Shown here one piece after another: positions 2,892 through 55,383 of a stretch of 64,000 nt of DNA. The notes below the pieces were generated by a model, which saw only the letters and a program-made list of their open reading frames with translations, made no database searches and was not told the origin of the DNA. The position numbers and the translations under genes are program-made. This DNA comes from Planctomycetota bacterium (lineage in GTDB: Bacteria; Planctomycetota; JAJSAM01; JAJVHW01). Every line of letters begins with the position of its first letter. Positions within the stretch are counted from its first letter, which is position 1. The DNA is taken from the NCBI GenBank assembly GCA_965248445.1, contig CBDFJG010000003.1, forward strand, positions 785,081 to 849,080. The letters are read 5' to 3'.

Positions 2892-4930
<2,039 letters not shown>

Positions 4931-6500: not shown

Positions 6501-6520
6501 ACCCGCCGCCTGAGCGGCGG
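6501..6520 (-). terminator. GC-rich hairpin (cccgccgc-ctga-gcggcggg) immediately downstream of the NIL-domain gene stop
   Basis: An 8-bp perfect stem with a 4-nt loop, 5 nt beyond the stop at 6525. There is no clear U-tract. Confidence 0.25.
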
Positions 6521-6524
6521 GTAG

Positions 6525-13033: not shown

Positions 13034-13140
13034 GGCGGCGCAGAGTACCGAGACCGGCGCCCTTTTGCTCCGGGAACAGATCGGCGTCTCCAGTGCGTCA
13101 GCCGCAGCACCAACGGTCTCCACAGCGTCAGCTGTGGAAC

Positions 13141-13174
13141 CAGAAAAGAAGGCCCCGGCGTCTCCGCCGGGGCC
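13141..13174 (-). terminator. Rho-independent terminator downstream of the ferritin-like gene
   Basis: On the minus strand the element reads GGCCCCGGCG-GAGA-CGCCGGGGCC (10-bp perfect stem) followed by TTCTTTTCTG. It lies 26 nt past the stop at 13200. Confidence 0.55.
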
Positions 13175-13199
13175 CCCTCCCTTCCTGAGTCCGCCTTCG

Positions 13200-13688
13200 C
13201 TAGGCGGCCTCGGCCTCGGCCGCAGTGGCCTCGGCCTCCACCTTCCGGAGAGCGGTGAGGAGCTCGTCGCGGTGCGCGCGGCTCTCCTCGACCAGGATCT
13301 TCAGGAAGATCCGGCAAGAGCGGTCCGGCACCATGTCCGATGCGCGATCGCAGAACGTCCGCGCCTCCTCGGCCGTGCGTACCGCCATCCGCAGCACGGT
13401 CACGTAGTCGAGGTCGACGTCGCGGCCCATGTCCGCCAGAGCGGCGTGCATGGGAGAGACGTCGATCTGTATGTCGCCCAGCAGCGGTGTCGGGCACAGC
13501 TCCTTGCGGTGCTTGATCAGGATCTTCCGCTGGTCCTTCTCGTCCTGCCCCATCCGACGGAACCAGCGCCGCTGGTCCACGTCTTCCAGACGGTCTGCGA
13601 CTCGGGTGTAGAACCCGAACGCGATCTCCTTCTCGCGCGCCATCCGATCCAGGATCGCGCGTACCCGTGCAGCCTCGACCGAGCCCAT
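13200..13688 (-). CDS. Hypothetical ferritin-like/rubrerythrin-like four-helix-bundle protein
   Basis: 162 aa with helical, paired E/H/D-rich segments (EEARTFCDRASD, EESRAHRDEL). It carries its own terminator. Confidence 0.45.
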   Translation of the reverse strand: MGSVEAARVRAILDRMAREKEIAFGFYTRVADRLEDVDQRRWFRRMGQDEKDQRKILIKHRKELCPTPLLGDIQIDVSPMHAALADMGRDVDLDYVTVLRMAVRTAEEARTFCDRASDMVPDRSCRIFLKILVEESRAHRDELLTALRKVEAEATAAEAEAA

Positions 13689-26929: not shown

Positions 26930-27472
26930 CTAGTCCTTCTTCTCACCGCCGACGATGGCGGTGACACCGAGGCCCTTGTGGGCGCGCTCTTCGCTGATCG
27001 TCTTCTGCAGCTGGATGATCGCGTTCAGCACCATCTCCGGACGCGGCGGGCACCCGGGGATGTAGTAGTCCACCGGCACGACGTGGTCGATCCCCTGCAT
27101 CACCGGGTAGCTGCGGAACATGCCGCCGGTGGAGGCGCAGGCACCCATGGCCATGACCCACTTCGGCTCGGCCATCTGGTCGTACAAGCGACGGCACGCC
27201 TCGCCCATCTTGTAGGTCAGCGTCCCGGCCACGAGCATCAGGTCGGCCTGTTTCGGGGAGAAGCGCGCCACCTCGGCGCCGAAGCGCGCCATGTCGAAGC
27301 GCGACGCCGCGGTGGCCATGAACTCGATCGCGCAGCACGACAGCCCGAGGGGCAGCGGCCAGATCGAGTTGCGGCGGGCCCAGTTGATCACCGAATCGAC
27401 GCGGGTGAGGAGGGCCCCGCCCTCTTCCTGGGACTCGCCTACGTGGAGCGCGGTCAGTTTTCTTTGTGCCAT
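26930..27472 (-). CDS. nuoB: NADH-quinone oxidoreductase subunit B
   Basis: LSCCAIEFMA...GACASTGGMF...GCPPRPE (N2 cluster ligands). Internal start MAQRKLTAL, overlapping the nuoA stop by 17 nt. Confidence 0.9.
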   Translation of the reverse strand: MAQRKLTALHVGESQEEGGALLTRVDSVINWARRNSIWPLPLGLSCCAIEFMATAASRFDMARFGAEVARFSPKQADLMLVAGTLTYKMGEACRRLYDQMAEPKWVMAMGACASTGGMFRSYPVMQGIDHVVPVDYYIPGCPPRPEMVLNAIIQLQKTISEERAHKGLGVTAIVGGEKKD

Positions 27473-27858
27473 TCCAGCACCCCTTTCTTCACGACATACA
27501 CCCAGCCGAGGAAGAGCACGAGCACGAACGCCGCAGCCTCGGCCATCAGGAGCCCGCTGCCCGGGAAGCTCGCCCGGTCGGTGCCGACGTTGCCGAACGA
27601 GACCGCCCACGGGTACATGAACACGACCTCGACGTCGAACAGGATGAAGAGCATCGCGACGATGTAGAACTTCACGCTGAATCGTGCGTGCGCCTCGGTC
27701 TTGATGGGCATGCCGCACTCGTACGGCGTGTTTTTCACCCGGTTCTGCCGGCCGCGCTGCCCCAGGATCGCCGAGACGCCGAGCGAGCCCACGGCGAAGA
27801 GGACGCCGAAGAGCGCCATCAGGAGCACCGGCAGGTAGGGGTGAGTCTGCGCTGGCAT
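27454..27858 (-). CDS. nuoA: NADH-quinone oxidoreductase subunit A
   Basis: 134 aa with 3 TM helices; conserved ND3 motif PYECG; first gene of the operon. Confidence 0.9.
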   Translation of the reverse strand: MPAQTHPYLPVLLMALFGVLFAVGSLGVSAILGQRGRQNRVKNTPYECGMPIKTEAHARFSVKFYIVAMLFILFDVEVVFMYPWAVSFGNVGTDRASFPGSGLLMAEAAAFVLVLFLGWVYVVKKGVLEWHKEN

Positions 27859-28461
27859 GAGGCTGGACCCGGCCGGCCCGATCGCTGACGGTCAGGAGCC
27901 GCGGCCTTCGCCGCGCAGAGGGCCGTCGCCGCCCGCGCGCGCGAAGGGTGTGGGCGAACCGTAAGTAGGAAGCGGCAGGCGGCCAAGCACATTTCGCCGG
28001 GTCGCGGAGCCTCCGGGGGAGCAGCTCCGAGGGGCGAGCTAGCCGACGCTCGGAGAGCGCTCTACAGGCACGTTGTCGGCTTCGGCGAGTGGGACCCGCG
28101 GCGGCGCCTCGGCTGCTTCGCGGGCGTCGTCGATGAGCTGACCGGCGCGGTCGAATCGAGCGCCGGGTCGAGGCGAGCGTCGCCCGCCGTGTCGGTGGAC
28201 GGGAGCCGCTGCGCGAGTCGCATTCGCGGCGGCCCGGACGCCGCCCGGGGCCCCGACCACACATGGCTCCCGGGGGCGCCGGCTGCACCACAGTCTTCGG
28301 GTCTCCACGAAGGCCGCCTTAGGCTCGCCTCGGGAGGATTCGACGTTTCTCGACGTGAGAGTGCGTCCGCGGCTCGCCGCGTCTCAATCCGGGAATCCGG
28401 AGGACAGATTTCTTCTCCCGGTAGCGCGTGTGACCGCGGTCGTCGCGTCGCGACGGGGAGG
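27859..28461 (-). promoter_or_regulatory. ~600-bp non-coding leader/promoter region upstream of nuoA
   Basis: No credible ORF is present (only Arg/Pro-rich frames). The region sits between the stop of the M1 peptidase gene and the nuoA start. Confidence 0.3.
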
Positions 28462-31296
28462 TCAGGCAGCCTTTTTGGCGGCCGGTTTCTTCGGCTTCGG
28501 CACGTTGACACCGATCGCTCGGAGCTCGTTCTCGATGCGCTTGACCTCGGCCACCGCCGCCTTCCGCTCCCGCTCGACTCGTTGTCGGTCTTCGGGCCGG
28601 GCGAAGCGGGCCGTCTCGAGAGTCCGCTTCAGCCCGTCGGCGCGAGCGCGCGCGGTCTCTAGCCGCCCGATGATCAAGAGGCCCTGCACGGCGAGGACGG
28701 TCACGGGACGTCGGTCGGTCACGGCCTTGTTCCGGACGGCCCGGAGGGCGCGTGAGATCGCGCCGCGCGTGCCCCGCCAGGGCTCGCGGGCGTGGGCGGC
28801 GACCAGCACGGGAACCGTCGAGGGGTCCGCCAGCGTGGCCAGCGAGCGCGCCGCCTGCGTGCGGAGTCCCCGCCTGGCATCCGCGAGGAACGGCAGCACG
28901 ACGTCAACCGCGCCCTCACGGTCCTTCCCGAGCCTGCCGAGAGCAGCCACGGCGGCAGCGCGCGCGTCCGGCGGCGCGCCCGGGGCCGCGTAGCCGGCGG
29001 CGATGTCGAACCCGCGGGGGTCGCCGAGGGTCGCGAGGCCGCGGAGTGCTGCGCTCCTCACGAACCCGCGCCATCCCGGGCGATCGAGCGCCGCGACCAT
29101 CACGTCGAACACGCCGTCGCCCTTGAGCCGAGACAGCGACGTGAGCGCTGCGGCCCTCACGAGGTCGTTCGGGTCCGCCGCACGGCGGACGAGTTCCTGC
29201 CGGACGTCATCCGACTCCTTGAACGCGCGCAGCCGCTCCAGCACGCGGAGCCGGACACGCAGGTCCGGGTCGTCGCGCAGCACGGACAACAGCAGAGCGG
29301 CATTCTCGGCGCTCGCGGGTCGCCACAACGAGTTCACCGCAGCCAGGCGCAGGTGATGCGACGCGTCCTCGCGCACGATGCGCACAAGAGTGTCTCGAGC
29401 GGCGCGCTTCACGTCCTCGGTCGCCTTCTTGTCGTTCAGCCGGGACGATATCTTGCGGATGGCGTCGAGGCGTTCCGCGGTCGAAGGCGCGGTGCGCAGC
29501 AACCGGTCCCACTCGTCCGGCCGGCGCTCGACGTCCACTTTCGCGAGCAGGCCACGAGCCGGGTCGAAGCGCACGGTGTCGGGCGGACCGGCGAGCGAGA
29601 TGCGGAACTCGTGACTCCGCTCCGTGAGCGCGAACCGGCGGCGAACGGTGGGCGCGCCGGCGCGGTCCACCTCGACGTCGAGTGGCAGCCGGTACGCGGC
29701 CGGCGTGCCGTCCTTCGCATCGTGCGCCTGCTCCGCGCGCACGACGACCTGGCGCGTTCCCGCATCCCATGACCAAGAGAGCTTCAGGTGAGGCCGGCCG
29801 GGCACGCGGAACCACTGGTCGAAGAACCATGACAGGTCCGCTCCATACGCAGCTGAAGCGGACCTCTCGAAGTCCTCGGTCGTCACCGGGCCGCCCGCGT
29901 GGTCGGCGACGTAGCGGCGCACGATCGCCTTGAACTTCTCGGTCCCCACCTCGACGCGCAGTGCGTGCAGACGTGCGGCCCCGCCGCCGTACGCATGGCC
30001 ATCGAAGAAGAGGTCGAACGGCTTGGCGTAGACGTCGGAGACGACCGGGCGGCGCGACCTGACCGCGGCACCGGCCGCGCCCGCCATCGTGCCGCGCATC
30101 CCCACGAGGAAGTCGTCGGTGCCGCCGTCGTGCTCGCGCCAGAGATGGGTGAAGTACGTGGCAAAGCCCTCGTTCAGCCAAACGTGAGACCAGTGCTTGC
30201 AGGTCATCAGGTCGCCGAACCACTGGTGCGCGCCCTCGTGAGCAACCAGGCTGTGGCTCGTCCTGGACGGCTCCCACTCCGGTGGGTGAATGGTCCCGCT
30301 CGTCAGCGTCGTAGCGCTGATGTTCTCCATGCCGCCGAACATGAACTCGCGGACGCAGCACTGCGCGTACTTGGCGTACGGGTACGGCCGTCCCGTGTAG
30401 TCGCCGAAGAACTCGAGAATGCGCTGAGTGTTGCGCAGCGAGTACGCGACGTGCTCCGTGTCGCGCGCCGAGACCCAGTACTCGAGAGGGACGGCCCCGT
30501 CCTCAGCCGTGATCTCGTACTCCCCCGCCACGAACGTGGTCAGGTAGGTCACGTGGGCGTTGTCCATCCTGTAGTGCCACGTGCGGCGTGCGCCGGGCAG
30601 GTCCTCGACGTCGGTGCGCACTCCCGCCGCGGACACGGACATGTGGTCGGGCACCGTCACGTGGATCGCGTGCGTCGCGACGTCGTCGGGGAAGTCGTGG
30701 CACGGCATCCAGTGACGCGTGTCCTCGCACTCGCCTTGTGTGAACGCCTGAAGAGGAGCGTCGGGGTGCGCAGCCGTGGACGAGTTGAAGTACACACCCG
30801 CCGTGGGCCGCGCCGCGTACCTGATCGAGTAGCGCCGTTCCGTCCCCGCTCTCGATCCGCCGGGCAGCGGGATGGCCAGCACGCGCCCGTCGTAGTCGAA
30901 CGGCACGGCCGCACCTTGTCCGTTCGTGACGGTACGCACGTCGAGTTCGACCGCGTCGAGCAAGAGCGCGTGGTGTCCGTCGGCCGCATCGGTGATGTCG
31001 ATGGTGACCCTGCCGCCAAGCGCCTCGAGGTCGAAGTCGAGTTCGACGGCGATGTCGTCGTTCGTCACGTCGAAGCCCCAGACGGGCTGCGGATGGGCGA
31101 CCTTCTTCGGCGCGACGGGGTCCTCGGGCAGACGGTCGTCGAACGGGCGCGCAGGGTCCGGCTGGACTCGTTGCAGCAACAGCGGCTCCGGCATGGGACC
31201 GCGGAACACGGGAAGTGCCTCCGGGGCGGCCGCCGCGCAGGCGCCCGTGACCGCGAGGCAGACGGCGAGACTCAGGATCGGCGGAGTGGGTCTCAC
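28462..31296 (-). CDS. Secreted M1-family aminopeptidase (aminopeptidase N-like) with C-terminal HEAT repeats and a Lys-rich tail
   Basis: A signal peptide plus Cys follows the GTG start (VRPTPPILSLAVCLAVTGAC). Gluzincin motifs are HEGAHQWFG...WLNEGFATY. The C-terminus has PBS-lyase-type HEAT repeats and ends KPKKPAAKKAA. The GTG start overlaps the kinase stop (GTGA). The 190-codon Arg-rich extension was rejected. Confidence 0.8.
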   Translation of the reverse strand: MRPTPPILSLAVCLAVTGACAAAAPEALPVFRGPMPEPLLLQRVQPDPARPFDDRLPEDPVAPKKVAHPQPVWGFDVTNDDIAVELDFDLEALGGRVTIDITDAADGHHALLLDAVELDVRTVTNGQGAAVPFDYDGRVLAIPLPGGSRAGTERRYSIRYAARPTAGVYFNSSTAAHPDAPLQAFTQGECEDTRHWMPCHDFPDDVATHAIHVTVPDHMSVSAAGVRTDVEDLPGARRTWHYRMDNAHVTYLTTFVAGEYEITAEDGAVPLEYWVSARDTEHVAYSLRNTQRILEFFGDYTGRPYPYAKYAQCCVREFMFGGMENISATTLTSGTIHPPEWEPSRTSHSLVAHEGAHQWFGDLMTCKHWSHVWLNEGFATYFTHLWREHDGGTDDFLVGMRGTMAGAAGAAVRSRRPVVSDVYAKPFDLFFDGHAYGGGAARLHALRVEVGTEKFKAIVRRYVADHAGGPVTTEDFERSASAAYGADLSWFFDQWFRVPGRPHLKLSWSWDAGTRQVVVRAEQAHDAKDGTPAAYRLPLDVEVDRAGAPTVRRRFALTERSHEFRISLAGPPDTVRFDPARGLLAKVDVERRPDEWDRLLRTAPSTAERLDAIRKISSRLNDKKATEDVKRAARDTLVRIVREDASHHLRLAAVNSLWRPASAENAALLLSVLRDDPDLRVRLRVLERLRAFKESDDVRQELVRRAADPNDLVRAAALTSLSRLKGDGVFDVMVAALDRPGWRGFVRSAALRGLATLGDPRGFDIAAGYAAPGAPPDARAAAVAALGRLGKDREGAVDVVLPFLADARRGLRTQAARSLATLADPSTVPVLVAAHAREPWRGTRGAISRALRAVRNKAVTDRRPVTVLAVQGLLIIGRLETARARADGLKRTLETARFARPEDRQRVERERKAAVAEVKRIENELRAIGVNVPKPKKPAAKKAA

Positions 31297-32147
31297 CCGA
31301 AGGTCTCGTCGCTCGTGAGCCGTGCGGACACGTCGGCGGCCAACGGCCGCGCCTCGGGCTCCTTGGCCAGCGTGTCGCGAAGCAGCCGCGCGACGCCTCT
31401 CGGGCAGCGCGGATCCACCGCACGCGCGTCGGGGACGCTCTTCTCCAGATGTCCGACGAGCACGTCGAGGAGCGTCGCCCCGACAAAGGGGGCCCGTCCG
31501 GTCAGCGTCCTGAACAGCACGCAGCCGAACGAGTAGATGTCCGCAGGCGTTCCGGGGGTCTGTCCACGCACCTGTTCCGGCGCGATGCTGTGCGCGGTGC
31601 CGAGCACGGTCCCGGTGCGGGTCAGACGGTCGGAATCGGAGAGACGCGCCAAGCCGAAGTCGAACAGACGCGCGCGCGCCGGCGTCCCGGAGGCGATCAA
31701 GATGTTCTGTCCGGAGAGGTCGCGATGGACGACGCCCGCCTCGTGCGCCGCCGCCAGTGCGTCCGCGACTCCGGCCAGCAGACGGCACGCATCCCGGGCG
31801 TATTCGTCGTAGCCCGGCGCGCCCTTGTCCGGGCGGGTCGCGAGCGCCCACTCGGTCAGCAGCCTCCCGTCGAGCAACTCCATCGCGATCCAGGGCGTGG
31901 ACTCTCCGTCCGCCTCGCGCACGCCATGCCCCAGCACCTGCACGATGGCCGGATGCTGCGCGGCGCGGAGAGCGGCCACCTCACGGGCGAACCGTCCATC
32001 CGCGTTGTCCGACGGCGTTTTGCCGTCCAGCAGCTTGATCGCACACGCTTGGCCGGTCTCTCGGTCGCGCGCGCGGAACACGCGGGCGAACGATCCGGCA
32101 CCGAGCGGCGCCAGGAGTTCGAAGCGTCCGCCCACGACCCCACCCAT
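31293..32147 (-). CDS. Serine/threonine protein kinase (catalytic domain only, 284 aa)
   Basis: Hanks-type motifs: GAGSFARVF, AIK, HRDLSGQNIL, DFG, APE. Confidence 0.85.
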   Translation of the reverse strand: MGGVVGGRFELLAPLGAGSFARVFRARDRETGQACAIKLLDGKTPSDNADGRFAREVAALRAAQHPAIVQVLGHGVREADGESTPWIAMELLDGRLLTEWALATRPDKGAPGYDEYARDACRLLAGVADALAAAHEAGVVHRDLSGQNILIASGTPARARLFDFGLARLSDSDRLTRTGTVLGTAHSIAPEQVRGQTPGTPADIYSFGCVLFRTLTGRAPFVGATLLDVLVGHLEKSVPDARAVDPRCPRGVARLLRDTLAKEPEARPLAADVSARLTSDETFG

Positions 32148-32184
32148 AGGCCGCGGAGTCTAGCTTGCCGGCGCTGCGAGTCCG

Positions 32185-33465
32185 CTATCGGCGCAGGAAC
32201 GGTCCGGGGAACTCTCCGGGCGGGTGCGTCGCTTCGCGCGCAGCCTTGCGCAGGCGGGCGGCCTCCGCCTCGCGTCCGGCGTCGCCGGCCGCGAGGGCGT
32301 CCACGAAAAGAACGTCGTTCGTCCGCCCGGCCAGAGTCGCGTAGGCCACGCCCCAGTCGGCCCCGCCGCGCCCCAACAGGCGCGCAGCCATGGCGCGGAC
32401 GAACGATGGCGCCTCTGCGTCTGCCAGCGCCGTCAGTTCCTTCCGCGCCTTCTCCGCATCCCCGGACTCGCGGTGGAGCAGGGCACGCGCGAACGCCATC
32501 TGCCGCGAGACGGCGGGCGGAAGGCTCGCAGCTTCCGTGCGGTCAAGGGCCGTCAGCGCCGCGCTCGCGTTCCGGGTCCCCGCGTGCGCCATCGCCAGGG
32601 CAAACGCCGCGCGCGCGGACGTCCGGCCCTTCCCGGCCCAGCGCGTGGCCGCGGTGACAGCGCGCTCGTAGTCGCCGCAACGCAACAAGGACTCGGTGGC
32701 TTCTCGGACGATGTTGCGGCCGATGGGATCGAGCGGTGCGCCCTGCGCCGCCAGCAACAGGTCAGCGCCGGCCTCATCGAACTTCCCGAGTCGCTCCTTC
32801 GCCAGGCCGCGCACGAGCGCTACATCCGGGTACTGCTGCTCCACGGGGGCAACGAGCTCGAGCGCCTCGCGCGGATCGCGGGCGACGATGGTCGCCGCCA
32901 GTCCCGTGCGCGCGTCGATGGAGTTGGGATCGACCAGGACCGCGTGACGAAGTGTCGTCTCGGCGTCCGCCGTTCGGCCGAGGGCGCGCAGCGCGGCGCC
33001 GTGACCCAGGAGCGTGTCCAGTTCGTCCGGCCAGTGGCGCCGCGCGCGCATGTAGAGCACTTCGGCTTCCTTCGCGCGCCCGGCGGCGAGCAGTTCACCG
33101 GCCGCGTCACGCGCGATGACGGGAGTCTCCTGGTCGAGCATCGCCGCGCGCAACAGGCTGTCGAGCGCTTCGACGTGGCGACCCGACTGCCGGTGCAGGA
33201 TGCCCAGCGCGTGGTGCACAGCGGCCGCCTCCGGCTCCTCGGCGATCAGCTCCCGGAAGATCGTCTCCGCCGCCGCGTCGTCGCCCCGGTCGAACAGCCG
33301 CTGCGCCTCGCGGAATCGCTTCACGTAGCGATCGATGCGGAGCAGCTCGACGGGCGACGGAGGGGCGTCGTCAGTCCCGTCGCCGGGCACCGCGAGCAGC
33401 ACAAGACACGCCGCCAGGGCAGCCGCGATGGGCAGGACGACGTACAGGCGTGCGCGTTTGGCCAC
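32185..33465 (-). CDS. TPR-repeat protein with N-terminal signal/anchor
   Basis: The MAKRARLYVVLPIAAALAACLVLLAV N-terminus is followed by multiple 34-residue TPR-like helical repeats. Confidence 0.7.
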   Translation of the reverse strand: MAKRARLYVVLPIAAALAACLVLLAVPGDGTDDAPPSPVELLRIDRYVKRFREAQRLFDRGDDAAAETIFRELIAEEPEAAAVHHALGILHRQSGRHVEALDSLLRAAMLDQETPVIARDAAGELLAAGRAKEAEVLYMRARRHWPDELDTLLGHGAALRALGRTADAETTLRHAVLVDPNSIDARTGLAATIVARDPREALELVAPVEQQYPDVALVRGLAKERLGKFDEAGADLLLAAQGAPLDPIGRNIVREATESLLRCGDYERAVTAATRWAGKGRTSARAAFALAMAHAGTRNASAALTALDRTEAASLPPAVSRQMAFARALLHRESGDAEKARKELTALADAEAPSFVRAMAARLLGRGGADWGVAYATLAGRTNDVLFVDALAAGDAGREAEAARLRKAAREATHPPGEFPGPFLRR

Positions 33466-33551
33466 GGATTGGGTCCCGGCGGCCTCCTCGGGGAACTACG
33501 CTCCCACCCTCGGCGCCGCCACTCTCGGGATCGGCTGCCCGCGAGGGACAC

Positions 33552-36500
33552 ATGAACCTGAACGCTCTAATTCCGGGCACGGCCGTCGTCCTGGCGCTCC
33601 TCGCAGCGACCGCACGGGCAGGCCCGGAGATCCGCTCCCACGACCTCCAGCTGACCCTGGATCCGTCCTCGGGCAGGCTCGACGGCACGGACACGGTCGC
33701 TGTCGCGAGGGATGGCGGGGGCAAACTCCGCTTCTCGCTGAACGCGGCCCTCACCATCTCGGAGGCGCTCGTCGACGGCCGCAAGGCCCTCGGGCTCGAG
33801 AAGGTCGAGGACGACGGCTGGCGGGCGGAGTGGCAGATCGACGTGCCGGCCGGTCCGGGTGCGATGGGAGCGATGCGACTGCGTTACTCCGGCCGGATCC
33901 AGGACGACGTCGAGAAGAGCGAGACGCTTGGATTCGTGGTCGGCGACAGCTGCCGCGGTGTCGTGTTCGACCAGGGGGTCTACCTCTCGGGCGGCTCGTA
34001 TTACTACCCCGACGACGGCGGCGTCGCGCGCTTCGACGTTCGTGTCAGCATCCCCGCCCCCTACCTCGCGATCTCGCAGGGCACATTGGTCGAGCGAACG
34101 TCCGTCGGGACGAGCGACGTGTCACGCTGGCGCGGCAAGGTCACCGCGGATTCACTGGCCGTCGTCGCGGGACGGCTGAAGTACTTCGAGCGCAAGGGGA
34201 AGCGCGTCACCGTCGGCGCCTATCTCTCGGACGCCAACGCCGCGGGTGCCGAGATCCTGCTGGACGCGGCGGAGCGCGAGATCGCCACGTACTCCGAGCT
34301 TCTCGGTGCTTACGCCTTCGACCGGTTCGACGTCGTGGAGAACTTCTTCTCCTCCGGCTACGGCTTCCCCGAATTCACGCTTCTGGGCCAGCACGTGGTC
34401 GCGCGCATGGTCATGGAGTCGCAACGGTCCGGGCGCATCCCCCCGGGCTACCTAGACCACGAGATCGTGCACTGCTGGTGGGGCAACCTCGTGTACCCCG
34501 ACTACGACGCGGGCAACTGGTGCGAGGGGCTGACGAGCTACTGCTCGAACTACCTCGCAAAGGAGCGCGAGAGCCCGGCGGCGGCGCGCACGCACCGCGA
34601 ACGCAGTTCCGTGCGGTTCTCAACCCGGGTGACCGCGGACCGCGACTACCCCGTGCGTTCGTTCACGGGCAAGGTCGAGGACTTCGACAACGAGATCGGC
34701 TACACGAAGTGCTCGATGACCTTCCACATGCTGCGTCGCGAGATCGGCGACAAGGCGTTCTGGAGCACCCTACGACGGGTAACGAAGGACCACGCAGGCA
34801 AGCGCGTCTCGTGGGCGGTCTGGCAAGCGGAGTTCGAGAAGACCAGCGGCCGCAACCTGGGCGAGTTCTTCGCACAGTGGCTGGACCGCACCGGGGCGCC
34901 GCTGCTGGGCCTCGGTGATACGCGCGTCGAGTCGAAGGACGGACGAACGCGCGTGATCGGGACTATCCAGCAACACCTCGCGCCGGACGAGAAGCCATGG
35001 AAGCTCACCGTCCCCCTCGTCGTGGAACTGCTCGACGGTCAGGAGGAGTTCGAGGTCGTCCTGAACGGCGCGTCGGCGGACTTCTCCGTGCTCGTGCCGT
35101 CGCTCCCGCTAGCCGTGCACGTGGACCCGGAGCACCACGTATTCCGACGTCTGGCGCCCGCCGAGATCCCGGCCTGCCTCTCCGCCACGTTGGAGCGTCC
35201 GCACACGATGGTCGTGTATCCCGACGACGACTCCGCGCTGCGCGCGGTAGCCGAGCGCGCGCGGTCCAAGGGCGCAACCGTCATTTCCGCGTCGGAGGCG
35301 CCGAAGACGGTCCCGAAGGGAGTCAGCCTCCTGATCCTCGGAGACACCGAGCGCGTGCCCCTGCTGGCGGCGTTGCGGGCGCCGCTGAAGTCTCACTTCC
35401 CCGGGCGCGGTGACGGCGAAGACGTGACCATCCTCGCGACGTCGCGCAGCCCCGCTGACCGCAACGAGTTCGTGACGACGTTCGTCGGGACACCCGAGGC
35501 ACTCGCCGGACGCGCGCGCGCGATCTTCTACTACCAGTTCGACGGACGCATCGTGTTCGCCGGACGCCGGCCCCGTGAGCGCGAGACGGTACCCGGCGTC
35601 AGTCTCACGCGCAAGCGCGTGCTCCCCGACGTGCGCGCCGATCCGCTGCGGGTCGAGCGCCACTTGAAGGCGCTTACAGCGAAGGACATCGAGGGGCGCC
35701 TCGCGGGCACCGCCGCTGAGAAGGCGGCGCGGCGGATCGTGGCGACGGCCTTGCGCGAAGCGGGACTCGCAGTGTCGGAACAGAAGTTCTCGTTCAAGGT
35801 GCGTCGCACACACGCAGAGAGTGAACTCCTGGTCGGCGGCGAACGGGTCGCCGACGCACACCCGCTCGTTGCGTCTCCAACGACCGAGCCGGACGGCGTG
35901 ACGGCAGCCGGGTTCGCCAGTGATCCGTCCGACGACCTGACCGGGCTCGCCCTCGTGGTAGACGTCCCGGCGCAGAGCGATGACCCGCTCGGGTTCGTGC
36001 GCGGTGTCGCCGAACTCGCCAAGGCCGGAGGGGCCGTGGCGGTGTTGGTGCGTGTGCCCGAAGAGGGCGCCGCGCGGGTGGCCGAGCTGTACGAGACGCC
36101 GGAGGCACTGCACCCGGCCGTGCGCGCGCGGTTGGACGCGACGAAAGCGCGCGGCGGATCCGGGGACCACCTCATGCGCGCGGCCGGTACGGCGGCCCGA
36201 AACGGGTACCGGGTCGACCTGCCGCTCCCCGCGTTCGCCGTGCCGGCCGATACCGCGCTGGACGGGACGCTGACCCTCATCGTCAAGTGGAACGAAGTCG
36301 TCATCGAGAGCGCGAACGTCGTCGGGCGCTTGCAGGGCGGCGGAGGCCGCGGCCGGGCGATCCTCCTTGGCGCGCACGTCGATCACCTCGGTACCGGCTT
36401 CCCCGGTGCGGACGACGATGCGTCCGGACTGGCCGCGCTCATCGAGGCAGCGAACGTCCTCGCCGCACATCAGGACCGGCTGTCGCGGGACGTGCTGTTC

Positions 36501-36929
36501 GTCGCGTTCGGGGCCGAGGAGTGGGGCCTGCGCGGCAGTCGTCACTACATGAACAGCTTGAACGCCGACTATCCGGTGGAGCCACGCGTGTCGGTCGCGC
36601 TGACGGCGGACACGATCGGGCACGCGGCGGTCACCGACGTCTCGATCGTCGGCATCTCCAAGCACCCGCGACTCGCGCGCGTCGTCGCCGCCGCACTCGA
36701 GCAGTCGTCGTTCACGGTCGGCAAGGACATCGACCGCTTCGCGTTCGCGCACGGCAGCGACCACTACTCATTCCACGAACAAGGTGTGCCGGCGGTCGAT
36801 CTCTGGTCGGGCGACTACCAGGTCATGCACACGAAACGGGACACGCTCGACATCGTGGACCCGAAGAAGATCGCCCGCATCGGCCGGGCCATGGCGCTGG
36901 CCGCGCTCGCGCTGTCGAACTCGTACTGA
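33552..36929 (+). CDS. Secreted bifunctional-looking peptidase: N-terminal M1-like gluzincin domain fused to a C-terminal M28 (aminopeptidase/PA-less) zinc peptidase domain
   Basis: The N-terminus is a signal peptide (MNLNALIPGTAVVLALLAATARA). The M1-like motifs are HEIVHCWWGN...EGLTSY. The C-terminal ~300 aa carries the M28 metal ligands (GAHVDHLG, DDDASG, EEWGLRGS, HGSDHYSF). Start is at the internal ATG; the 34-codon extension was rejected. Confidence 0.8.
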   Translation: MNLNALIPGTAVVLALLAATARAGPEIRSHDLQLTLDPSSGRLDGTDTVAVARDGGGKLRFSLNAALTISEALVDGRKALGLEKVEDDGWRAEWQIDVPAGPGAMGAMRLRYSGRIQDDVEKSETLGFVVGDSCRGVVFDQGVYLSGGSYYYPDDGGVARFDVRVSIPAPYLAISQGTLVERTSVGTSDVSRWRGKVTADSLAVVAGRLKYFERKGKRVTVGAYLSDANAAGAEILLDAAEREIATYSELLGAYAFDRFDVVENFFSSGYGFPEFTLLGQHVVARMVMESQRSGRIPPGYLDHEIVHCWWGNLVYPDYDAGNWCEGLTSYCSNYLAKERESPAAARTHRERSSVRFSTRVTADRDYPVRSFTGKVEDFDNEIGYTKCSMTFHMLRREIGDKAFWSTLRRVTKDHAGKRVSWAVWQAEFEKTSGRNLGEFFAQWLDRTGAPLLGLGDTRVESKDGRTRVIGTIQQHLAPDEKPWKLTVPLVVELLDGQEEFEVVLNGASADFSVLVPSLPLAVHVDPEHHVFRRLAPAEIPACLSATLERPHTMVVYPDDDSALRAVAERARSKGATVISASEAPKTVPKGVSLLILGDTERVPLLAALRAPLKSHFPGRGDGEDVTILATSRSPADRNEFVTTFVGTPEALAGRARAIFYYQFDGRIVFAGRRPRERETVPGVSLTRKRVLPDVRADPLRVERHLKALTAKDIEGRLAGTAAEKAARRIVATALREAGLAVSEQKFSFKVRRTHAESELLVGGERVADAHPLVASPTTEPDGVTAAGFASDPSDDLTGLALVVDVPAQSDDPLGFVRGVAELAKAGGAVAVLVRVPEEGAARVAELYETPEALHPAVRARLDATKARGGSGDHLMRAAGTAARNGYRVDLPLPAFAVPADTALDGTLTLIVKWNEVVIESANVVGRLQGGGGRGRAILLGAHVDHLGTGFPGADDDASGLAALIEAANVLAAHQDRLSRDVLFVAFGAEEWGLRGSRHYMNSLNADYPVEPRVSVALTADTIGHAAVTDVSIVGISKHPRLARVVAAALEQSSFTVGKDIDRFAFAHGSDHYSFHEQGVPAVDLWSGDYQVMHTKRDTLDIVDPKKIARIGRAMALAALALSNSY

Positions 36930-36943
36930 CTGGCGTCGGGCAC

Positions 36944-36965
36944 GCGGATCGCAAACGCGATCCGC
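36944..36965. terminator. Hairpin GCGGATCGC-aaac-GCGATCCGC between convergent genes
   Basis: A 9-bp perfect stem 15 nt after the stop of the M1-M28 gene. It sits in the 227-bp convergent intergenic region. Confidence 0.35.
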
Positions 36966-37156
36966 GCGCCGTCCTGGTCAGTTTGTATCCCTCCTACGCG
37001 ACCTCCGGTCGCTACGGACGGCTGCGGTCACGCCGGTTGGTCCGGGGGGGCCACCGAAGCGACGAGTCGACATGCGTCGATGCGCCGACGGCGCCGCACG
37101 GGGTCGTTCTGCGCGGTCCCCGCCGGCACCAGGGTCCGAGGCGTCCGCGTCGCGCG

Positions 37157-38113
37157 TCAGTCGTCGGCGTCGTTGCCGCCGGTCATCAGGTCGAGCTGCT
37201 GTTGCAGGGTCTCGGCGTCGGGGTGGTGCGCGATGCCGTCCTGGAGGACCGCCTTCGCCTTCTCCACGTTGCCCTTCGCTCGGTACAGCTCGGCGAGTTC
37301 GAGGTACGTGCCCGCGTGCTTCGCGTCCGGCGTGACGCTCTGCTGCATCTCGCGCAGCTTCTCGTAGCGCTCGATCGCCTCCTGGCCCTTCTTGGGGAAC
37401 ATCGGGGGCCACTGGCTCAGCGAGAACGCGAGCGAGCGCTGCGCGTCCCAGTTCGTGGGATGTCGTTCGATGATGTCGCGGTAGACCTGCTCACCCTTCG
37501 CCGCCCAGGCCCCGCGCTCCGGGCCGAACGGGACACTCAGCAGCTTGGCGGTGTAGGCCTCGGCCAGCCGGAACGCAGACTCCGGGTCGTCGGGGTTCTC
37601 CTCGGCGGCCTTCTCGAACTCCGGGATGAGGTCATCGACCACTTCCGTCTCGCGGGCGAGCCGCCAGAACTCCACCCGATCGTCGTCGTCGCCCTCGCCG
37701 CTCACGATCTTGTCGCGCAGCGCATCGAACTTCGCGCGCAGCTCTTCCTTCGTCGGCGCGCCGATGTTCACGCCTCGGCCACCGCCATCGCCCCTGCGGA
37801 CGCCCCGGCCCTCGAGAGCCGCCTTCTCGGCCGCTTCCACGCGCTCGATCAGCTCGCGCACCTTGTCGCGTAGCTGCCGCTCCTCTTCGCGCACGCGACC
37901 GATCTGCTTGTTGGCGTGCTGCACACCGTCCTGCAGACCGCGCACCTGCTCGCCCAAGGAGCCGATGCTCTCGTTGTCCAGGCCGGCCGTGTCCTCGAGG
38001 CCGTTGAGCGCATCGGTCGCGTCGGAGCGCGCCCACATGGAGAAGACGAGCGCGGCCCCCCCGAGCAGCAAGCCCGCGAGTCCGAACACGACCCCGACAG
38101 TGCCTTCCTTCAT
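37157..38113 (-). CDS. Hypothetical membrane-anchored coiled-coil protein with C-terminal TPR-like helical domain
   Basis: Start at MKEGTVGVVFGLAGLLLGGAALVF (TM helix). A coiled-coil segment follows (LQDGVQHANKQIGRVREEERQLRDKVRELIERVEAAEKAA), then a helical-repeat C-terminus. The ATG overlaps the apbC stop (ATGA). The 170-codon 5' extension was rejected. Confidence 0.5.
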   Translation of the reverse strand: MKEGTVGVVFGLAGLLLGGAALVFSMWARSDATDALNGLEDTAGLDNESIGSLGEQVRGLQDGVQHANKQIGRVREEERQLRDKVRELIERVEAAEKAALEGRGVRRGDGGGRGVNIGAPTKEELRAKFDALRDKIVSGEGDDDDRVEFWRLARETEVVDDLIPEFEKAAEENPDDPESAFRLAEAYTAKLLSVPFGPERGAWAAKGEQVYRDIIERHPTNWDAQRSLAFSLSQWPPMFPKKGQEAIERYEKLREMQQSVTPDAKHAGTYLELAELYRAKGNVEKAKAVLQDGIAHHPDAETLQQQLDLMTGGNDADD

Positions 38114-39171
38114 ACCTCCACCTTTCCGAGGCGCCCGACCTGGCTGACCTTGCCCGCTAGGAGACGCGCCGTCTTGCAGAACGCCTCGGCCACCGCGCTG
38201 TCCGGATGACTGACGACGACCGGTGTGCCGGCGTCGCCGCCCGCTCGCACCGTCGTGTCGATGGGGATCGCCCCCAAGAAGGGCCAACCGTGTTCTTCCG
38301 CCGCGGTTCGACCGCCGCCCTCGTCGAAGATCGCCGTGGCCGTGCTGCAGCAAGGGCAGATGAACGTGCTCATGTTCTCGATCACGCCCAGGATCGGGAC
38401 GTTGACCCTGTCGAACATGTTCGCACCCTTTACCACGTCGGCCAGGGCCACTGCCTGCGGGGTCGTGACCATGACCGCGCCGGTGAGGGGGAAGATCTGC
38501 GTCAGGGACAGTTGCACGTCCCCCGTCCCGGGCGGCAGGTCCACGACCAGGTAGTCGAGCTCGCCCCAGTCCACGTCCTCGAAGAACTGTGTCAGCGCCT
38601 TGTGCAGCATCGGTCCGCGCCACACGACCGCCTGGCCCTCCGGAACGAGGTAGCCCATCGAGAGCAGCTTCAGCCCCTGCGCTTCGACGGGATGAATGCG
38701 CCCCTCCACTACCTCGGGCTTGCGTCCGACGGTTCCGGTCATCATCGGGCCGCTCGGTCCGTAGATATCCACGTCCATCAGCCCGACCGAGGCACCGTCC
38801 TGCGCCAGCGCGACGGCGAGGTTCACCGCGACCGTCGACTTGCCGACGCCGCCCTTGCCGGATGCGATCGCGAGCACGTTCTTGATGCCTGGAGCCCGCG
38901 CCGCATCCGGACCGCGGGACGAAGCGACCTGCGCGCTCCAGTTGATCTCGACGGGCTCGACGATCCCGAGTGGCGCGACGGCGGCTTGCACGTCGGCCGC
39001 GATCGTCTCCTTCATCGGGCAGGCCGGAGTCGTGAGCTCGATGTCGAGGAACAGCTTGGGTCCCCCGAACTCAACTCCCTTGACCATCCCCAGAGAGACG
39101 ATGTCGCGGTGCAGTTCCGGGTCCTGCACCTGCTTCAGTGCCTCGAGGATCGATTCCTTGGTCGCGGGCAT
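38110..39171 (-). CDS. apbC: Iron-sulfur cluster carrier ATPase Mrp/ApbC/NBP35 family
   Basis: An N-terminal DUF59/MIP18-like domain, Walker A GKGGVGKST, and a CPCC-containing motif (FICPCCS). Confidence 0.9.
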   Translation of the reverse strand: MPATKESILEALKQVQDPELHRDIVSLGMVKGVEFGGPKLFLDIELTTPACPMKETIAADVQAAVAPLGIVEPVEINWSAQVASSRGPDAARAPGIKNVLAIASGKGGVGKSTVAVNLAVALAQDGASVGLMDVDIYGPSGPMMTGTVGRKPEVVEGRIHPVEAQGLKLLSMGYLVPEGQAVVWRGPMLHKALTQFFEDVDWGELDYLVVDLPPGTGDVQLSLTQIFPLTGAVMVTTPQAVALADVVKGANMFDRVNVPILGVIENMSTFICPCCSTATAIFDEGGGRTAAEEHGWPFLGAIPIDTTVRAGGDAGTPVVVSHPDSAVAEAFCKTARLLAGKVSQVGRLGKVEV

Positions 39172-39266
39172 GGCGTTACCTCCGGCGGGGAGCATACGCA
39201 GCCGCGTGGTTTTCCCTCACGAGACAGGGCGCGCCGTCACGAGACAGGACAGAAAAGTCGCAGCAG

Positions 39267-42200
39267 CTAGAGGCCGAGCGACAAGACGAACCAGTCTGCC
39301 ACGTCGCCCTCGGGCAGCCTGCCGGCAGCCTTCACCGCCTTCTTGACGGTCTTGGCGATCTTCTTCGAAGAGGCTTCGGTGCGCTGGGCGAAGCGCAGCG
39401 CCAGGAGCGCCTTGCCGAGCTTCTTCCGCGTCTTCGCATCGGACACCGCCGACGGCAGAGCCGCCAGCATCTCGGCGGTGCTGCCCGGCTCCTCCGGCAC
39501 CACGAACGGATCCGGATCCTGAGGAATGACGCCCGCCGCGAGGTCGCTGACCAAAGCGGTCATCTTCCATACCAGCGGGCCGTCGCTGATCCCCGCGTCT
39601 CGGAACGCCGCCTGCACCTTGCGCAGACGCTTGACGGCCTTGTTGCGCTTCTTCGTCTTGCCGCTCTGCACGTCCTCCCACGCCTTCAGGATCCCGCGGA
39701 TCGCCTTCTTCTCGACCTTCGGTGCGAGATCCGCGTCGCCCAGCGCGTCCGGCAGGACGTCGTCCATCGACGGCGTCACCGCGGTCAGCAGCGCCGTGCG
39801 CACGGTCGCGTCATCGTCATCGCTGACGGTCACTTCCAGCACGCCGTCGAGGCGTCGATCCGCCGGCCAACTGACGGCCGTTCCGCTACCGGATGCGACG
39901 GCCGTCGTGCCGTCCAGCACACGCCAGTCAAGCGTGAGCGCCGCCTGGTCGACAGGCGATGGGTCCGTCGCCGACACATCGAGCGAGAGGACGTGCCCGA
40001 CGTCCACCGTCAGCGCGCCCGGGAGCGTGAACTCCGGCGGTGCGTTCAGCACGCCGATGATGCGGCTGGCGAGATCGGATCCTCCGTCGCCGTCGTCAAC
40101 GGTCAGCGTGGCGAAGTACGCGCCGTCTTGTTGATACGTGTGCGTGACGTCGATCGCGTCGGAGGACATGCCGTCGCCGAAGTCCCACTCGATCGTGAGC
40201 ACGTCGTCGCCCGGATCGAACGCGGTTCCGTCGAACGAAACGGCATCACCCTCGGTCGCTGTCGCGTCCCCACCAGCGTCCACCGTCGGGGCGACGTTGG
40301 CGACGGTCACGACCAGCGTGTCGGCGGCGGTCTGCTCCGCCGCGTCGGTGACCGTCAACGTGACCGTGTACTGGCCCTCGTCTCCAAAGACGTGGGAAGG
40401 CGTGCTCCCGCCCGCGAACTGCCCGTCTCCGAAGCTCCACACGTGGGTGATCCCGGCGTCGAGATCGCTGCTGCTGGTTCCGTCGAATTGAACCGTGTCG
40501 CCCTCGTTCACGGAGCGGTCCTGCCCCGCCGCGGCGACAGGCGGGGCATCGAGGACGGTTACCTGGGTCGAGTTCGATCCGGTGTTGCCGACGTGATCCG
40601 TCACGCGAAGCGTCACGGTGTGCACGCCCACCGCGAAGTCGACCGACGGTGTGGCTCCGCTCGCGTCGTCGAACCCGCCGTCGTCGTCGGCGTCCCATGC
40701 GTACTCGGTCAGCGGCTGCCCCGACGAGTCACTGCTGCCCGAGCCGTCGAGGTCGACGGACGTGCCGTCGACCGTGGTCTGGGTCGTGACGATCGGAGCG
40801 CCGGGCACGGCGAACGGCGCCGTAGCGTCGACGTCCACGTCGATCTGCAACTCGACGGCGGCGAACGACTCGCCGAACGAACTGCTGGTCGCGTTCACCT
40901 TGAGCGTGTCCGTGCGCGTGTCGCTGACCGGGATCACGTCCCAGGACGCCGTGCGCGCTGCGCCGCCGCCGCTGGTCGGCTCGGTGTCGCCGACGGTCTG
41001 CGCCGCCGTCTCACCGGGCGCGAGAGTCCAGCCGGTGGGCAGCCCCAACACGAGCGACGGTGCGAACGCCGTCAATCCGCCGTCGTTCTCGAGCGACACG
41101 GACACGGTCACCTGTCCGCCACCCTGTGCGACGGACGGCGTGCTCGCGTCCGCGAGCTGCAGATCCGGGCCTGTGACCGCCGTCAGCGTCCCGGCCGACG
41201 CCACGGCGTAGTCGAGCGTCGTCTGACCCGAGGGGAAACTTCCGGCGCGCTTGACCTTCACGACTCCGGTCGAAAGGGCGGACGTCGCCTTCACCTGTTC
41301 AACGTTGTTCACGGTGCTCGCGCTGCTGCTGTCCTGCGTGCCGTCGCCGCCGTCGTACAGGCGCAGATCAACGTCGATGAGAGACTTGGCCGATCCCGTC
41401 AGCGAGGTCCGCGACGACGCGAATGCGGCGCTGCGGTTCCACACCACGGTCGAGCGGTCTCCCGCGGTCACTCCGGACAGCGTGAAGAAGACGTAGTCGT
41501 CACCGCTGCTCGTGAGCGTCCCGGTCTCGATGTAGTCGCGATCGGTGTAGGCCTGCGCAAGATCCATGGCACCGAAGCCCCACGTCGACCCCGGTGTCGT
41601 GGGACCGGTGACGAGTTCCGCACCGAGTTGATCAGAAGCGCCTTCACGGCCTCCGGCTGCCACGCCGCGTTGTAGTCGAGAAGCAGCGCCATCGCGCCCG
41701 CGACGTGCGGCGTCGCCATGGAGGTGCCGTTCGAGGACCGGAAGTCGTTGGCGGTCTCCCAGATCCAGCTGGCGGACTGGATGCTCACGCCGGGAGCCGA
41801 GAGATCGGGCTTCCGGCGGCCGTCTGACGTGTTGCCGCGGCTGGAGAAGCTCGCGATCGCGTCGTCGCTGCCCGACGTCGTGTTGCGGTCGTTGAACGCG
41901 CCCACCGTCACGATGTTGAACGCGTCCCCGGGCAGGCCGATGGTCCCGGAGTTCGGGCCGGAGTTGCCGGCCGCGATCGCCACGGACATGCCCGACACCT
42001 CGACGGCCGCGTCGAAGTAGACGCTGAATCCGGAGTTGCCGTTCGACGTGCCGCCACCGCCGAAGCTCCCGTTGAAGACGGTCGCACCGTTCGTGATGGC
42101 CCAGTCAGTGGCCGCCGCAATGTCGGGCCCAGTGCCCGATCCCTGGTTGCTGGTCGTCCGATAGAAGCACTTGGCGTTCAGGACACCCGTGCCCGGCGCC

Positions 42201-43141
42201 ACGCCGCCGTATGTCGAGTCCTGGCTCGCAACAGTGCCGCAGAGGTGCGTGCCGTGTCCGTGGAGGTCGTCGGTGCTGGACGCGTTGTCGTTGAAGTTGC
42301 TCTGCACCGCGGCGATGGCGAGCTGGACGGTGCTCGCGGTGACGACGTTGCCGCCACCCCCGAGCGAGAACGCCGGATGCGAGGTGTCTATCCCGGTGTC
42401 CCCGATCGCCACGCTCTGACCGGATCCGTTGTAGCCGGGAGAGGTGAAGCTGCTGGCGCCGATCGCGCCGACCGACTTGTCCATCGAGACCGTGAGAGTC
42501 GGTGATGCGTCCACGCGTCCGATCGTGGGGAACGCCGCGACGAGCGCCGGGAGATCGGCGGGACGCACGCGGGCGAAGACCGAGTTCAACACGTTGGACG
42601 AGCCGAGGACGCTTCCGGACGGCAACGACTCCACGTAACGGCGGAGCGGGTCCTGGAGCCGCTCGCAGCGCGGCGCCGCCGCCTCGAGAATCTCAGATCG
42701 CATCTCGCGCACCAGGCGCACCGTCTCGTCGCGCGAACTGCGAAGAACCGCCCGTTCCTCCGGATAGAGCAGCGCGACCTCGCGCTCCATGAGTCCGGCG
42801 ACGCCGAGTTCGATCCGGTCTTCGCGCGACGGGAGCAACGTGCGGATGCGCGCCAGGGCGGCGCGGGCGGGCGCCCGTACTTCGTCGATGCGAGCCGTGT
42901 AGTCGGCTCGCAACGCCGGTGCGGCCGCGACGGCGGGCTGCTCCGAGAAGATGATCCAGACGTCCACCGCCTCGGCCGGCGATTCCGTGATGCTCGCCAC
43001 GAGTTCGGGCGCCAGTCGCTCATCGAACGGTCCGAGTTCCTCGGCAGTGCCAATGGAAGACGCGGTGGAGGACGCGAGGCAGCACGCTGCGAGAACCGCG
43101 GCCAGGAGCGAGATCCGGATTGTGCGTCGCGTACGGCGCAT
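39267..43141 (-). pseudogene. Secreted subtilisin-like S8 peptidase with C-terminal PKD-domain repeats, interrupted by a frameshift near 41622 (two ORFs: 41468..43141 and 39267..41663)
   Basis: The upstream ORF has a signal peptide, an N-terminal propeptide-like region and the S8 catalytic triad motifs (DTGID, HGTHLCGT, GTSMATPHVAG). Its sequence ...EAVKALLINS continues in another frame as AELVTGPTTPGSTWGFGAMDLAQAY... (the rest of the S8 fold), followed by three or more PKD domains. A 2-nt (or +1) frame discontinuity separates the two parts. Confidence 0.7.
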
Positions 43142-53341: not shown

Positions 53342-53362
53342 CGGCGTTCTCCCGCTCCCCGC

Positions 53363-55351: not shown

Positions 55352-55383
55352 GTTCCTCTTTCTCCTCGGGACCGGTCAGGTCC

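Follow-up and report, generated by a model that had tools for sequence, protein, structure and literature searches.

A conserved neighbourhood of genes for predicted exported aminopeptidases, a TPR protein and a Ser/Thr kinase in one clade of Planctomycetota

The locus described here lies in a 64,000-nucleotide stretch of planctomycete DNA (the window, whose first letter is position 1) and comprises four protein-coding genes, listed below together with the regulatory DNA between them and the neighbours that give the locus its context.

28462-31296, minus strand: M1 aminopeptidase gene of the PepN/ERAP1 type, 944 aa (Pfam)
31293-32147, minus strand: Hanks-type Ser/Thr kinase gene, kinase domain only, 284 aa (Pfam)
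32157-32162, minus strand: -10-like box TAGACT (TAnnnT), 9 nt before the kinase ATG
32185-33465, minus strand: TPR gene, 426 aa (several TPR Pfam families)
33466-33551, no strand: divergent intergenic region between the TPR and fusion genes, 86 bp (read directly)
33552-36929, plus strand: M1-like/M28 fusion gene, 1125 aa (Pfam)
27454-27858, minus strand (context): nuoA (Pfam Oxidored_q4), which lies downstream of the M1 gene and opens the NADH dehydrogenase operon
About 37157-38100 (context): second TPR gene, beyond the fusion gene and near the Mrp gene
38110-39195, minus strand (context): Mrp/NUBPL-type Fe-S cluster carrier ATPase gene (Pfam ParA/NUBPL, 336 bits, and FeS_assembly_P)

The coding status of the reading frames of the locus is supported by their G+C content at the third codon position (0.81-0.86), and nuoA is followed by nuoC, D, E and F (Pfam). 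In the initial annotation the kinase and TPR genes flanked a divergent pair of peptidase genes, whereas both actually sit between the two peptidases; the 86-bp divergent spacer is real, but it parts the fusion gene from the TPR gene and not from the M1 gene. The remainder of the proposed layout holds: the TPR gene is upstream of the kinase gene, and the M1 GTG start (31296-31294) overlaps the kinase TGA in the sequence GGGTGAGA, read directly (GTGA) and matched by a public gene call (P0001, 944 aa) with the identical M1 start. Since 4-nt overlaps of the GTGA/ATGA kind are the commonest between same-strand genes in bacteria, this one is not in itself unusual.

The M1 protein matches Pfam Peptidase_M1_N, Peptidase_M1 (142 bits) and HEAT_2 (87 bits). 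The zinc motif that marks MEROPS M1 and PF01433, here HEGAH-X18-E (H353, E354, H357 and E376), is invariant among 69 homologues, as are the exopeptidase motif GGMEN (321-325) and the catalytic Tyr Y436, and the 60-residue spacing from E376 to Y436 matches that between E320 and Y381 of Escherichia coli PepN. Its AF2 model (pLDDT 93) shows four domains, then a helical hairpin at the C-terminus and a tail rich in Pro and Lys, and is aligned by Foldseek with ERAP1, IRAP and PepN over its full length (870-940 columns, TM 0.6-0.73); the HEAT region is therefore domain IV. The HEAT repeats pointed out earlier thus correspond to a real HEAT_2 match, but to nothing other than the helical domain IV that PepN/ERAP1-type enzymes normally have. 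Nor is the Lys-rich tail (the protein ends in ...PKPKKPAAKKAA) a special feature, because cytoplasmic proteins of the wider M1-HEAT family likewise have a coiled-coil hairpin and basic tails. With PepN, ERAP1, IRAP and tricorn-interacting factor F3, all of MEROPS M1, the protein has in common GXMEN, HEXXH-X18-E, the catalytic Tyr and, in the model, the four-domain fold with an alpha-solenoid domain IV. It differs from them in the addition of a lipoprotein signal with a disordered tether of ~40 residues, in the C-terminal two-helix hairpin with its Pro/Lys-rich tail and in a domain IV that scores as PBS-lyase-type HEAT repeats, and it shares only 16-21% sequence identity with solved structures. 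The lipobox Cys20 is kept in at least 90% of orthologues, and the enzyme is accordingly predicted to be a lipoprotein.

That the divergent gene encodes an M1-like peptidase fused to an M28 zinc peptidase is borne out by Pfam (Peptidase_M1, 38.5 bits, above the curated cut-off of 27.7; Peptidase_M28, 127 bits). In the M1-like half, the zinc site HEIVH-X17-E (H303, E304, H307 and E325) is invariant among 61 homologues; GXMEN is absent throughout the family, which has GYG[FM]P instead, and in the model domains I-III are followed by an alpha/beta domain, the helical lid domain IV and its solenoid being absent. This N-terminal half is therefore best called M1-like, its aminopeptidase specificity not being assured, and it departs from the usual M1 enzyme in these two respects as well as in the X17 spacing. 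The C-terminal ~430 residues, by contrast, resemble the M28 leucyl aminopeptidases (the Aeromonas/Vibrio proteolytica enzyme AAP, 1AMP; Aneurinibacillus aminopeptidase, 2EK8; Bacillus subtilis YwaD, 6HC6): the motifs AHVDH, GADDDASG, GAEEWGLRGS, TADTIG and GSDH align with the metal ligands of 1AMP and 2EK8, and the five ligands that define M28 (PF04389; H, D, E, D, H), like the catalytic Glu, show little or no variation among the 61 homologues. In the AF2 model (pLDDT 92.7) the N-terminal half matches M1 enzymes and the C-terminal half, an M28 domain with an extra inserted domain, matches 2ek8. What sets the protein apart from bacterial M28 leucyl aminopeptidases is that this domain follows M1-like domains I-III and an alpha/beta linker within a secreted protein of 1125 aa. 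No description of an M1/M28 fusion was found in the literature; the same architecture is present in many Planctomycetota proteins. Complete zinc sites, as anticipated, are thus found in both the M1 enzyme and the window fusion. Catalytic residues of the fusion have been lost in four lineages (dead in L001, L002 and L009, largely dead in L119), which argues against a purely degradative role shared by the locus.

Signal peptides of the fusion are conserved, and the TPR orthologues share an Arg-rich N-terminus followed by a hydrophobic segment, together with a C-terminal PPGEFPG motif. The export signals of the three proteins, namely the M1 lipobox Cys, the fusion signal peptide and the TPR N-terminal anchor, are all conserved, and the TPR protein is predicted to be held by an N-terminal signal anchor with its TPR domain in the periplasm.

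The kinase is as minimal as first described, with a Pkinase domain (PF00069, 133 bits) at residues 10-273 of 284 aa and no other domain. GxGxxG, the VAIK Lys, the alpha-C Glu, the HRD Asp, the Asn, DFG and APE are present and invariant in eight orthologues; the Gly-rich loop, VAIK Lys, alpha-C Glu, HRD, DFG and APE are common to PknB-type Hanks kinases, the kinase domain matches the PknB model at 206 bits, and the activation loop of the orthologues, LTxTGTVLGT, is PknB-like. Unlike the PknB type, the window kinase is a kinase domain alone, without membrane segment or sensor domain, and its catalytic loop reads HRDLSGQN in place of HRDxKPxN. It thereby lacks the catalytic-loop Lys of HRDxKxxN, and its activity may be reduced; the same loop occurs in P0293 (80% identical), and HRD[LIV]KPxN in 54 of 56 orthologue clusters. 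No signal peptide and no membrane or hydrophobic segment was found in the kinase, which to judge from its sequence is a soluble, cytoplasmic protein and so belongs to another compartment than the exported proteins. Given this separation and the HRDLSGQN loop of the window copy, the suggestion that phosphorylation controls the peptidases finds no support, and the exported enzymes are unlikely to be phosphorylated directly. A profile protein search recovered ~55 clusters of orthologues, nearly all of 276-284 aa and sharply delimited (359-509 bits, versus at most 245 for other kinases). The 80 kinases returned by a metagenome scan with the kinase alignment were generic (at most 197 bits, where orthologues score 280-485 among themselves), and none of them adjoins an M1, TPR or fusion gene.

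Shared operator motifs had been expected in the divergent spacer (33466-33551). Comparison by k-mer sharing and by aligning six spacers, together with searches for repeats and promoters, revealed no sigma-70-like site, conserved operator or significant repeat there, and the spacer is unconserved, whereas the kinase gene has a conserved -10-like box of its own. A purine-rich stretch before the TPR start is the sole part of the spacer that is convincingly conserved. Upstream of the kinase, TA[GC]ACTC stands 8-10 nt before the start in eight of ten lineages, and the remaining two have a TAnnnT hexamer. The motif has a background frequency of ~3e-5 per position, and the remainder of the TPR-kinase spacer is unconserved. 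The box probably acts as a promoter. An Rfam scan of 27000-38000 gave nothing above noise, and terminator scans 3' of the M1 and fusion genes gave nothing useful.

How far does the arrangement extend beyond the window? The order fusion, divergent from TPR - kinase - M1, recurs in ~9 lineages of a single clade of Planctomycetota metagenome-assembled genomes, so that the conservation foreseen for the kinase-M1 coupling and for the divergent pair is indeed found. Among loci having both a subfamily M1 gene and its upstream DNA, the kinase gene directly precedes the M1 gene in 9 of 10, with junctions of -4 to +11 nt, and the fusion gene is divergent to the TPR gene in 8/8. With kinase orthologues as the starting point of look-ups, the M1 gene was seen downstream of them in one species group (L116-L118) and not in L119, where nuoA directly follows the kinase; conversely, in L114 the M1 gene is present and the kinase absent. 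In L003 and L008 insertions separate the TPR gene from the kinase gene, which still adjoins M1. Outside the clade, no kinase, TPR or fusion gene lies within 10 kb of 22 distant M1-HEAT homologues, and the TPR-kinase-M1 trio is absent around fusion homologues of 37-38% identity. The situation that was to speak against the initial proposal, scattered homologues and a cytoplasmic kinase, therefore applies in part: the kinase is predicted to be cytoplasmic and the distant homologues are scattered, but synteny prevails in the close clade. No description of this gene arrangement was found in the literature.

The flanks call for some caution. nuoA is downstream of the M1 gene in all eight related loci that reach that far, across a gap that varies from 175 nt to more than 2 kb and that holds extra genes in L004 and L116, and the Mrp neighbour is also seen in L001, L005, L009, L119 and the outgroup L112. 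Because NuoD is 69-85% identical across the loci, the clade has little depth, and inheritance alone may account for the gene order; and because housekeeping flanks (nuoA-N, Mrp) are equally collinear, synteny alone is no proof of joint function.

What, then, holds these genes together? One answer, possible though on the doubtful side, is descent alone: unrelated genes would have stayed on a collinear backbone, and the kinase-M1 overlap would reflect compact packing. The equal synteny of Mrp, the second TPR gene and nuoA-N fits this answer, as do the independent loss of one partner in L114 and L119, the insertions in L003 and L008 that part the TPR gene from the kinase gene, and the scatter of distant homologues. 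It accounts poorly for a kinase-M1 junction that stays at -4 to +11 nt despite protein divergence to 40-50% identity, for the adherence of the kinase to M1 even where the TPR gene has moved away, and for a sharply delimited group of kinase orthologues that, wherever their surroundings were seen (~10 loci), all lie in this neighbourhood. The conserved gene order and the tight kinase-M1 junction, with the short divergent spacer and the PknB-like activation loop, might instead suggest that the four genes form one co-regulated peptide-degradation system with a shared divergent promoter, whose peptidases the kinase phosphorylates. Such a system is improbable, given a soluble kinase without export signal set against exported targets, the missing Lys-Pro in the catalytic loop of the window copy, a spacer without conserved operator next to a kinase with its own -10-like box, and the partner missing in each of L114 and L119. 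Of the broader proposal of a co-regulated extracellular or periplasmic degradation system, the exported proteins, intact zinc sites and recurring order stand; a shared operator finds no support in the unconserved spacer, nor does an obligate system, since the parts can separate (L114, L119) and the fusion is dead or largely so in four lineages. More speculative still, and rather far-fetched, would be signalling across the envelope, in which the periplasmic TPR protein and the fusion, catalytically dead in several lineages, bind peptides made by M1 and relay this to the sensor-less cytoplasmic kinase, the receptor residing on separate polypeptides.

Two further readings carry very little probability. 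The constant presence of nuoA downstream, directly after the kinase in L119, and of an Mrp/NUBPL-type gene nearby could mean that the TPR protein, kinase and M1 enzyme serve the adjacent complex I in assembly, quality control or regulation alongside that carrier; the variable gaps to nuoA, the genes added in L004 and L116, the export of peptidases of ordinary exopeptidase types and the failure to find any precedent make this highly improbable. It is just as hard to credit the kinase with PD-T4-6-like anti-phage defence, or the kinase and M1 enzyme with action on a ribosomal peptide (a LanKC kinase domain with an AplP/EryP-type M1 leader peptidase). PADLOC PD-T4-6 models do match the kinase at up to 219 bits, lanthionine-synthetase models match it weakly, and EryP (7v9n) is the best PDB sequence match of M1, but these similarities appear generic, PknB reaching 206 bits and F3 and PSA scoring about like EryP, and the locus belongs to a stable housekeeping backbone and not to a variable island. 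A class III/IV lanthipeptide pathway (LanKC/LanL with an AplP-type M1) is further contradicted by a kinase domain that stands alone, with neither a lyase or cyclase domain nor a precursor gene found and no conserved small ORF at the locus in the window, by neighbours of TPR, nuo and Mrp type, and by an M1 enzyme that appears to be an exported lipoprotein.

The explanation that we prefer, and to which, taken as a whole, we give an even chance, is a clade-specific conserved chromosomal neighbourhood of exported aminopeptidases, lying as a putative module between the gene for the Mrp Fe-S carrier and the nuo operon. The M1 protein would be a lipid-anchored, canonical four-domain enzyme and the fusion a secreted protein with two peptidase heads, one lidless and M1-like, the other M28; most likely both cut oligopeptides down to amino acids, whether in the periplasm or on the cell surface, in the service of nutrition or of envelope protein turnover. 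The TPR protein, by prediction anchored in the membrane, may be a periplasmic partner of theirs, and the kinase and M1 genes would form a tightly coupled two-gene unit under the -10-like promoter that closely precedes the kinase start, whatever part the kinase might play. The components themselves are ordinary members of the M1, M28, TPR and Hanks-kinase families.

As the evidence stands, the main value of the locus is accurate annotation. There are also modest leads, namely the repeated loss of catalytic residues from a fusion whose gene persists, and the conserved promoter-like box before the kinase start. If the four genes do cooperate, they would show how peptides are processed in the large periplasm of one uncultured group of Planctomycetota, and would exemplify a link between exported enzymes and a cytoplasmic kinase that has no further domain.

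The segment at 28462-36929 of the window (G+C about 69%) holds four genes, called from frames with high third-position G+C (0.81-0.86), and a short upstream box to which we return below:

33552-36929, plus strand: fusion peptidase, 1125 aa, N-terminal half M1-like, C-terminal half M28
32185-33465, minus strand: TPR protein, 426 aa, first in transcription order of the minus-strand genes
32157-32162, minus strand: TAGACT, a form of the TA[GC]ACTC box, just upstream of the kinase start
31293-32147, minus strand: kinase, 284 aa, a Hanks kinase domain alone
28462-31296, minus strand: M1 peptidase, 944 aa, GTG start

A gap of 37 nt separates the TPR and kinase genes, and the kinase stop is overlapped by the M1 GTG, read as GGGTGAGA. 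Because Pfam and NCBIfam bear out all domain calls of the four proteins, and the public gene call P0001 has the same M1 GTG start, the initial annotation described the genes correctly. Their arrangement needs amending, however: the kinase and TPR genes, placed there on the flanks, are enclosed by the two peptidase genes, and the 86-bp divergent spacer, which does exist, is common to the fusion and TPR genes rather than to the two M1-type peptidases.

Does this order extend to other genomes? The relatives compared were Planctomycetota MAGs throughout. Of ten loci containing both an M1 gene of the subfamily (40-52% identity) and its upstream DNA, nine have a kinase gene immediately upstream of the M1 gene, with junctions of -4 to +11 nt (the exception is locus L114). 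The divergent fusion/TPR pair was counted in 8/8 loci, and nuoA, the first gene of the NADH dehydrogenase operon, follows the M1 gene in 8/8. The TPR gene adjoins the kinase gene in most loci, the two standing apart in L003 (4.8-kb insertion) and L008. Look-ups from kinase orthologues returned one species group (L116-L118) in which the M1 gene follows downstream, and a locus lacking it, L119, where the fusion-like, TPR and kinase genes are kept and nuoA follows directly; conversely, the M1 and nuo genes persist in L114, with an unrelated Gly/Ser-rich repeat protein upstream instead of the kinase:

L119:5492-8470: TPR and kinase genes, then nuoA, no M1 gene
L114:1-4817: M1 and nuo genes without the kinase gene

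No kinase, TPR or fusion gene was found within 10 kb at 22 loci of distant M1-HEAT homologues (30-42% identity), nor was the TPR-kinase-M1 trio found beside fusion homologues at 37-38% identity. Since the adjacency recurs in relatives and is absent around these distant homologues, the arrangement is real and specific to one clade.

Two kinds of additional gene lie between the M1 gene and nuoA. One, found in four relatives and without a counterpart in the window, encodes a protein of 70 aa that is conserved and has a single hydrophobic segment; the product of the other, inserted in one lineage, is 646 aa long and matches CarboxypepD_reg faintly:

L001:12929-13141, L002:7432-7644, L005 ~13095-13265, L009 ~12922-13065: 70-aa protein
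L004:10923-12863, L116:10761-12701: 646-aa protein

A shared operator had been suggested for the 86-bp spacer (33466-33551), but none is conserved there. The TPR-kinase spacer is likewise unconserved apart from TA[GC]ACTC, found 8-10 nt ahead of the kinase start codon in eight of ten lineages (the window, L001-L005, L008 and L009), the remaining two having a TAnnnT hexamer before the kinase start; by background frequency the motif would be expected at ~3e-5 per position. The box would thus be the -10 element of a kinase-M1 transcript with little or no leader, in which case M1 transcription would not simply originate in the divergent spacer.

The M1 enzyme has GGMEN, HEGAH-X18-E and Tyr436, none of which varies in 69 homologues. 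Its AlphaFold model (pLDDT 93, pTM 0.91) runs from a signal helix and disordered tether through a beta N-domain, thermolysin-like catalytic domain and beta-sandwich to an alpha-solenoid (593-860), and closes with a hairpin of two helices (867-927) followed by a PKPKKPAAKKAA tail, which is disordered. The HEAT repeats singled out initially are present but not special: Foldseek aligns 870-940 columns of the model with ERAP1, IRAP and E. coli PepN (TM 0.6-0.73), so that they represent the usual domain IV of an M1 aminopeptidase, and domain IV of PepN is likewise classed as a HEAT solenoid (PMC3837014). Common to the orthologues are a lipoprotein signal, whose Cys is nearly invariant, and a tail reading GVPxKPKPKP. 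The wider M1-HEAT family is very large (>7000 matches in Planctomycetota, Chloroflexota, Polyangia and others), and hairpins and basic tails are also found among its cytoplasmic members.

The fusion peptidase (model pLDDT 92.7) comprises a signal peptide, M1 domains I-III, an alpha/beta domain (~540-690) and an M28 domain into which, as in 2ek8 from Aneurinibacillus, an additional domain is inserted; no helical lid was found in the model. HEIVH-X17-E is invariant and, throughout the family, GYG[FM]P stands in place of GXMEN, while the window's M28 domain has every metal ligand and the catalytic Glu, aligning with 1AMP and 2EK8. This architecture is common in Planctomycetota (815 matches), and its homologues have generic annotation only. 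Some of them (P0143, P0144, P0153, P0155, P0164; 1435-1480 aa) have an extra C-terminal TolB/tricorn-like beta-propeller and are predicted three-module secreted peptidases. The protein at the fusion position has no M28 ligand left in L001, L002 and L009, where HExxH, the third Glu and GYGMP are missing too; its L119 counterpart has lost two M28 ligands and the M1 site. All four retain a signal peptide and 870-998 residues, and would appear to be retained pseudo-peptidases:

L113:8001-12383: propeller-bearing fusion homologue (example)
L001:5044-7656, L002:2-1618, L009 ~4570-7413, L119:2399-5395, all minus strand: fusion-position proteins with ligands lost

A few kb past the fusion gene (39267-43141, minus strand) are genes for a protein with PKD repeats and for an S8 subtilase, and an S8 subtilase lies near the fusion gene also in L004 (1-381) and L116 (1-219).

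The window kinase has every core motif and an activation loop like that of PknB, and no hydrophobic segment was found in it. Its orthologues, nearly all of 276-284 aa, form a sharply bounded group in a profile search (~55 clusters at 359-509 bits, other kinases <=245), of which it is the most diverged member (42-46% identity to orthologues that are 53-86% identical among themselves). Residues 141-148 read HRDLSGQN only in the window and in its 80%-identical relative P0293, the remaining 54 of 56 orthologue clusters having HRD[LIV]KPxN. Because of its Arg-rich N-terminus and single hydrophobic segment, the TPR protein is predicted to place its TPR domain in the periplasm; its C-terminal PPGEFPG motif is conserved. 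The suggestion that phosphorylation controls the peptidases lacks support, since kinase and peptidases are predicted to occupy different compartments, the window kinase lacks the catalytic-loop Lys, and the kinase and M1 genes have each been lost independently.

Elsewhere in the window (47948-56166, minus strand), an 1804-aa protein matches DUF3686 (675 bits; 'ATPase involved in DNA repair') and also contains DUF7902 together with an AAA domain. Close behind it come two genes whose products, of 670 aa and 260 aa, match no Pfam family, and the three may be an uncharacterised ATPase system.

What, then, keeps these genes together? The pair formed by the Fe-S carrier ATPase gene Mrp and a second TPR gene, TPR2, beyond the fusion gene recurs in loci that extend to it, which makes the entire segment collinear. 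The clade is not very deep, given that NuoD proteins from the different loci share 69-85% identity; gene order kept by descent is a serious rival explanation. Every component belongs to a known family, and the interest of the locus is therefore low to moderate; it is best read as a clade-specific neighbourhood of predicted exported aminopeptidases, a predicted periplasmic TPR protein and a probably co-transcribed, predicted cytoplasmic kinase.
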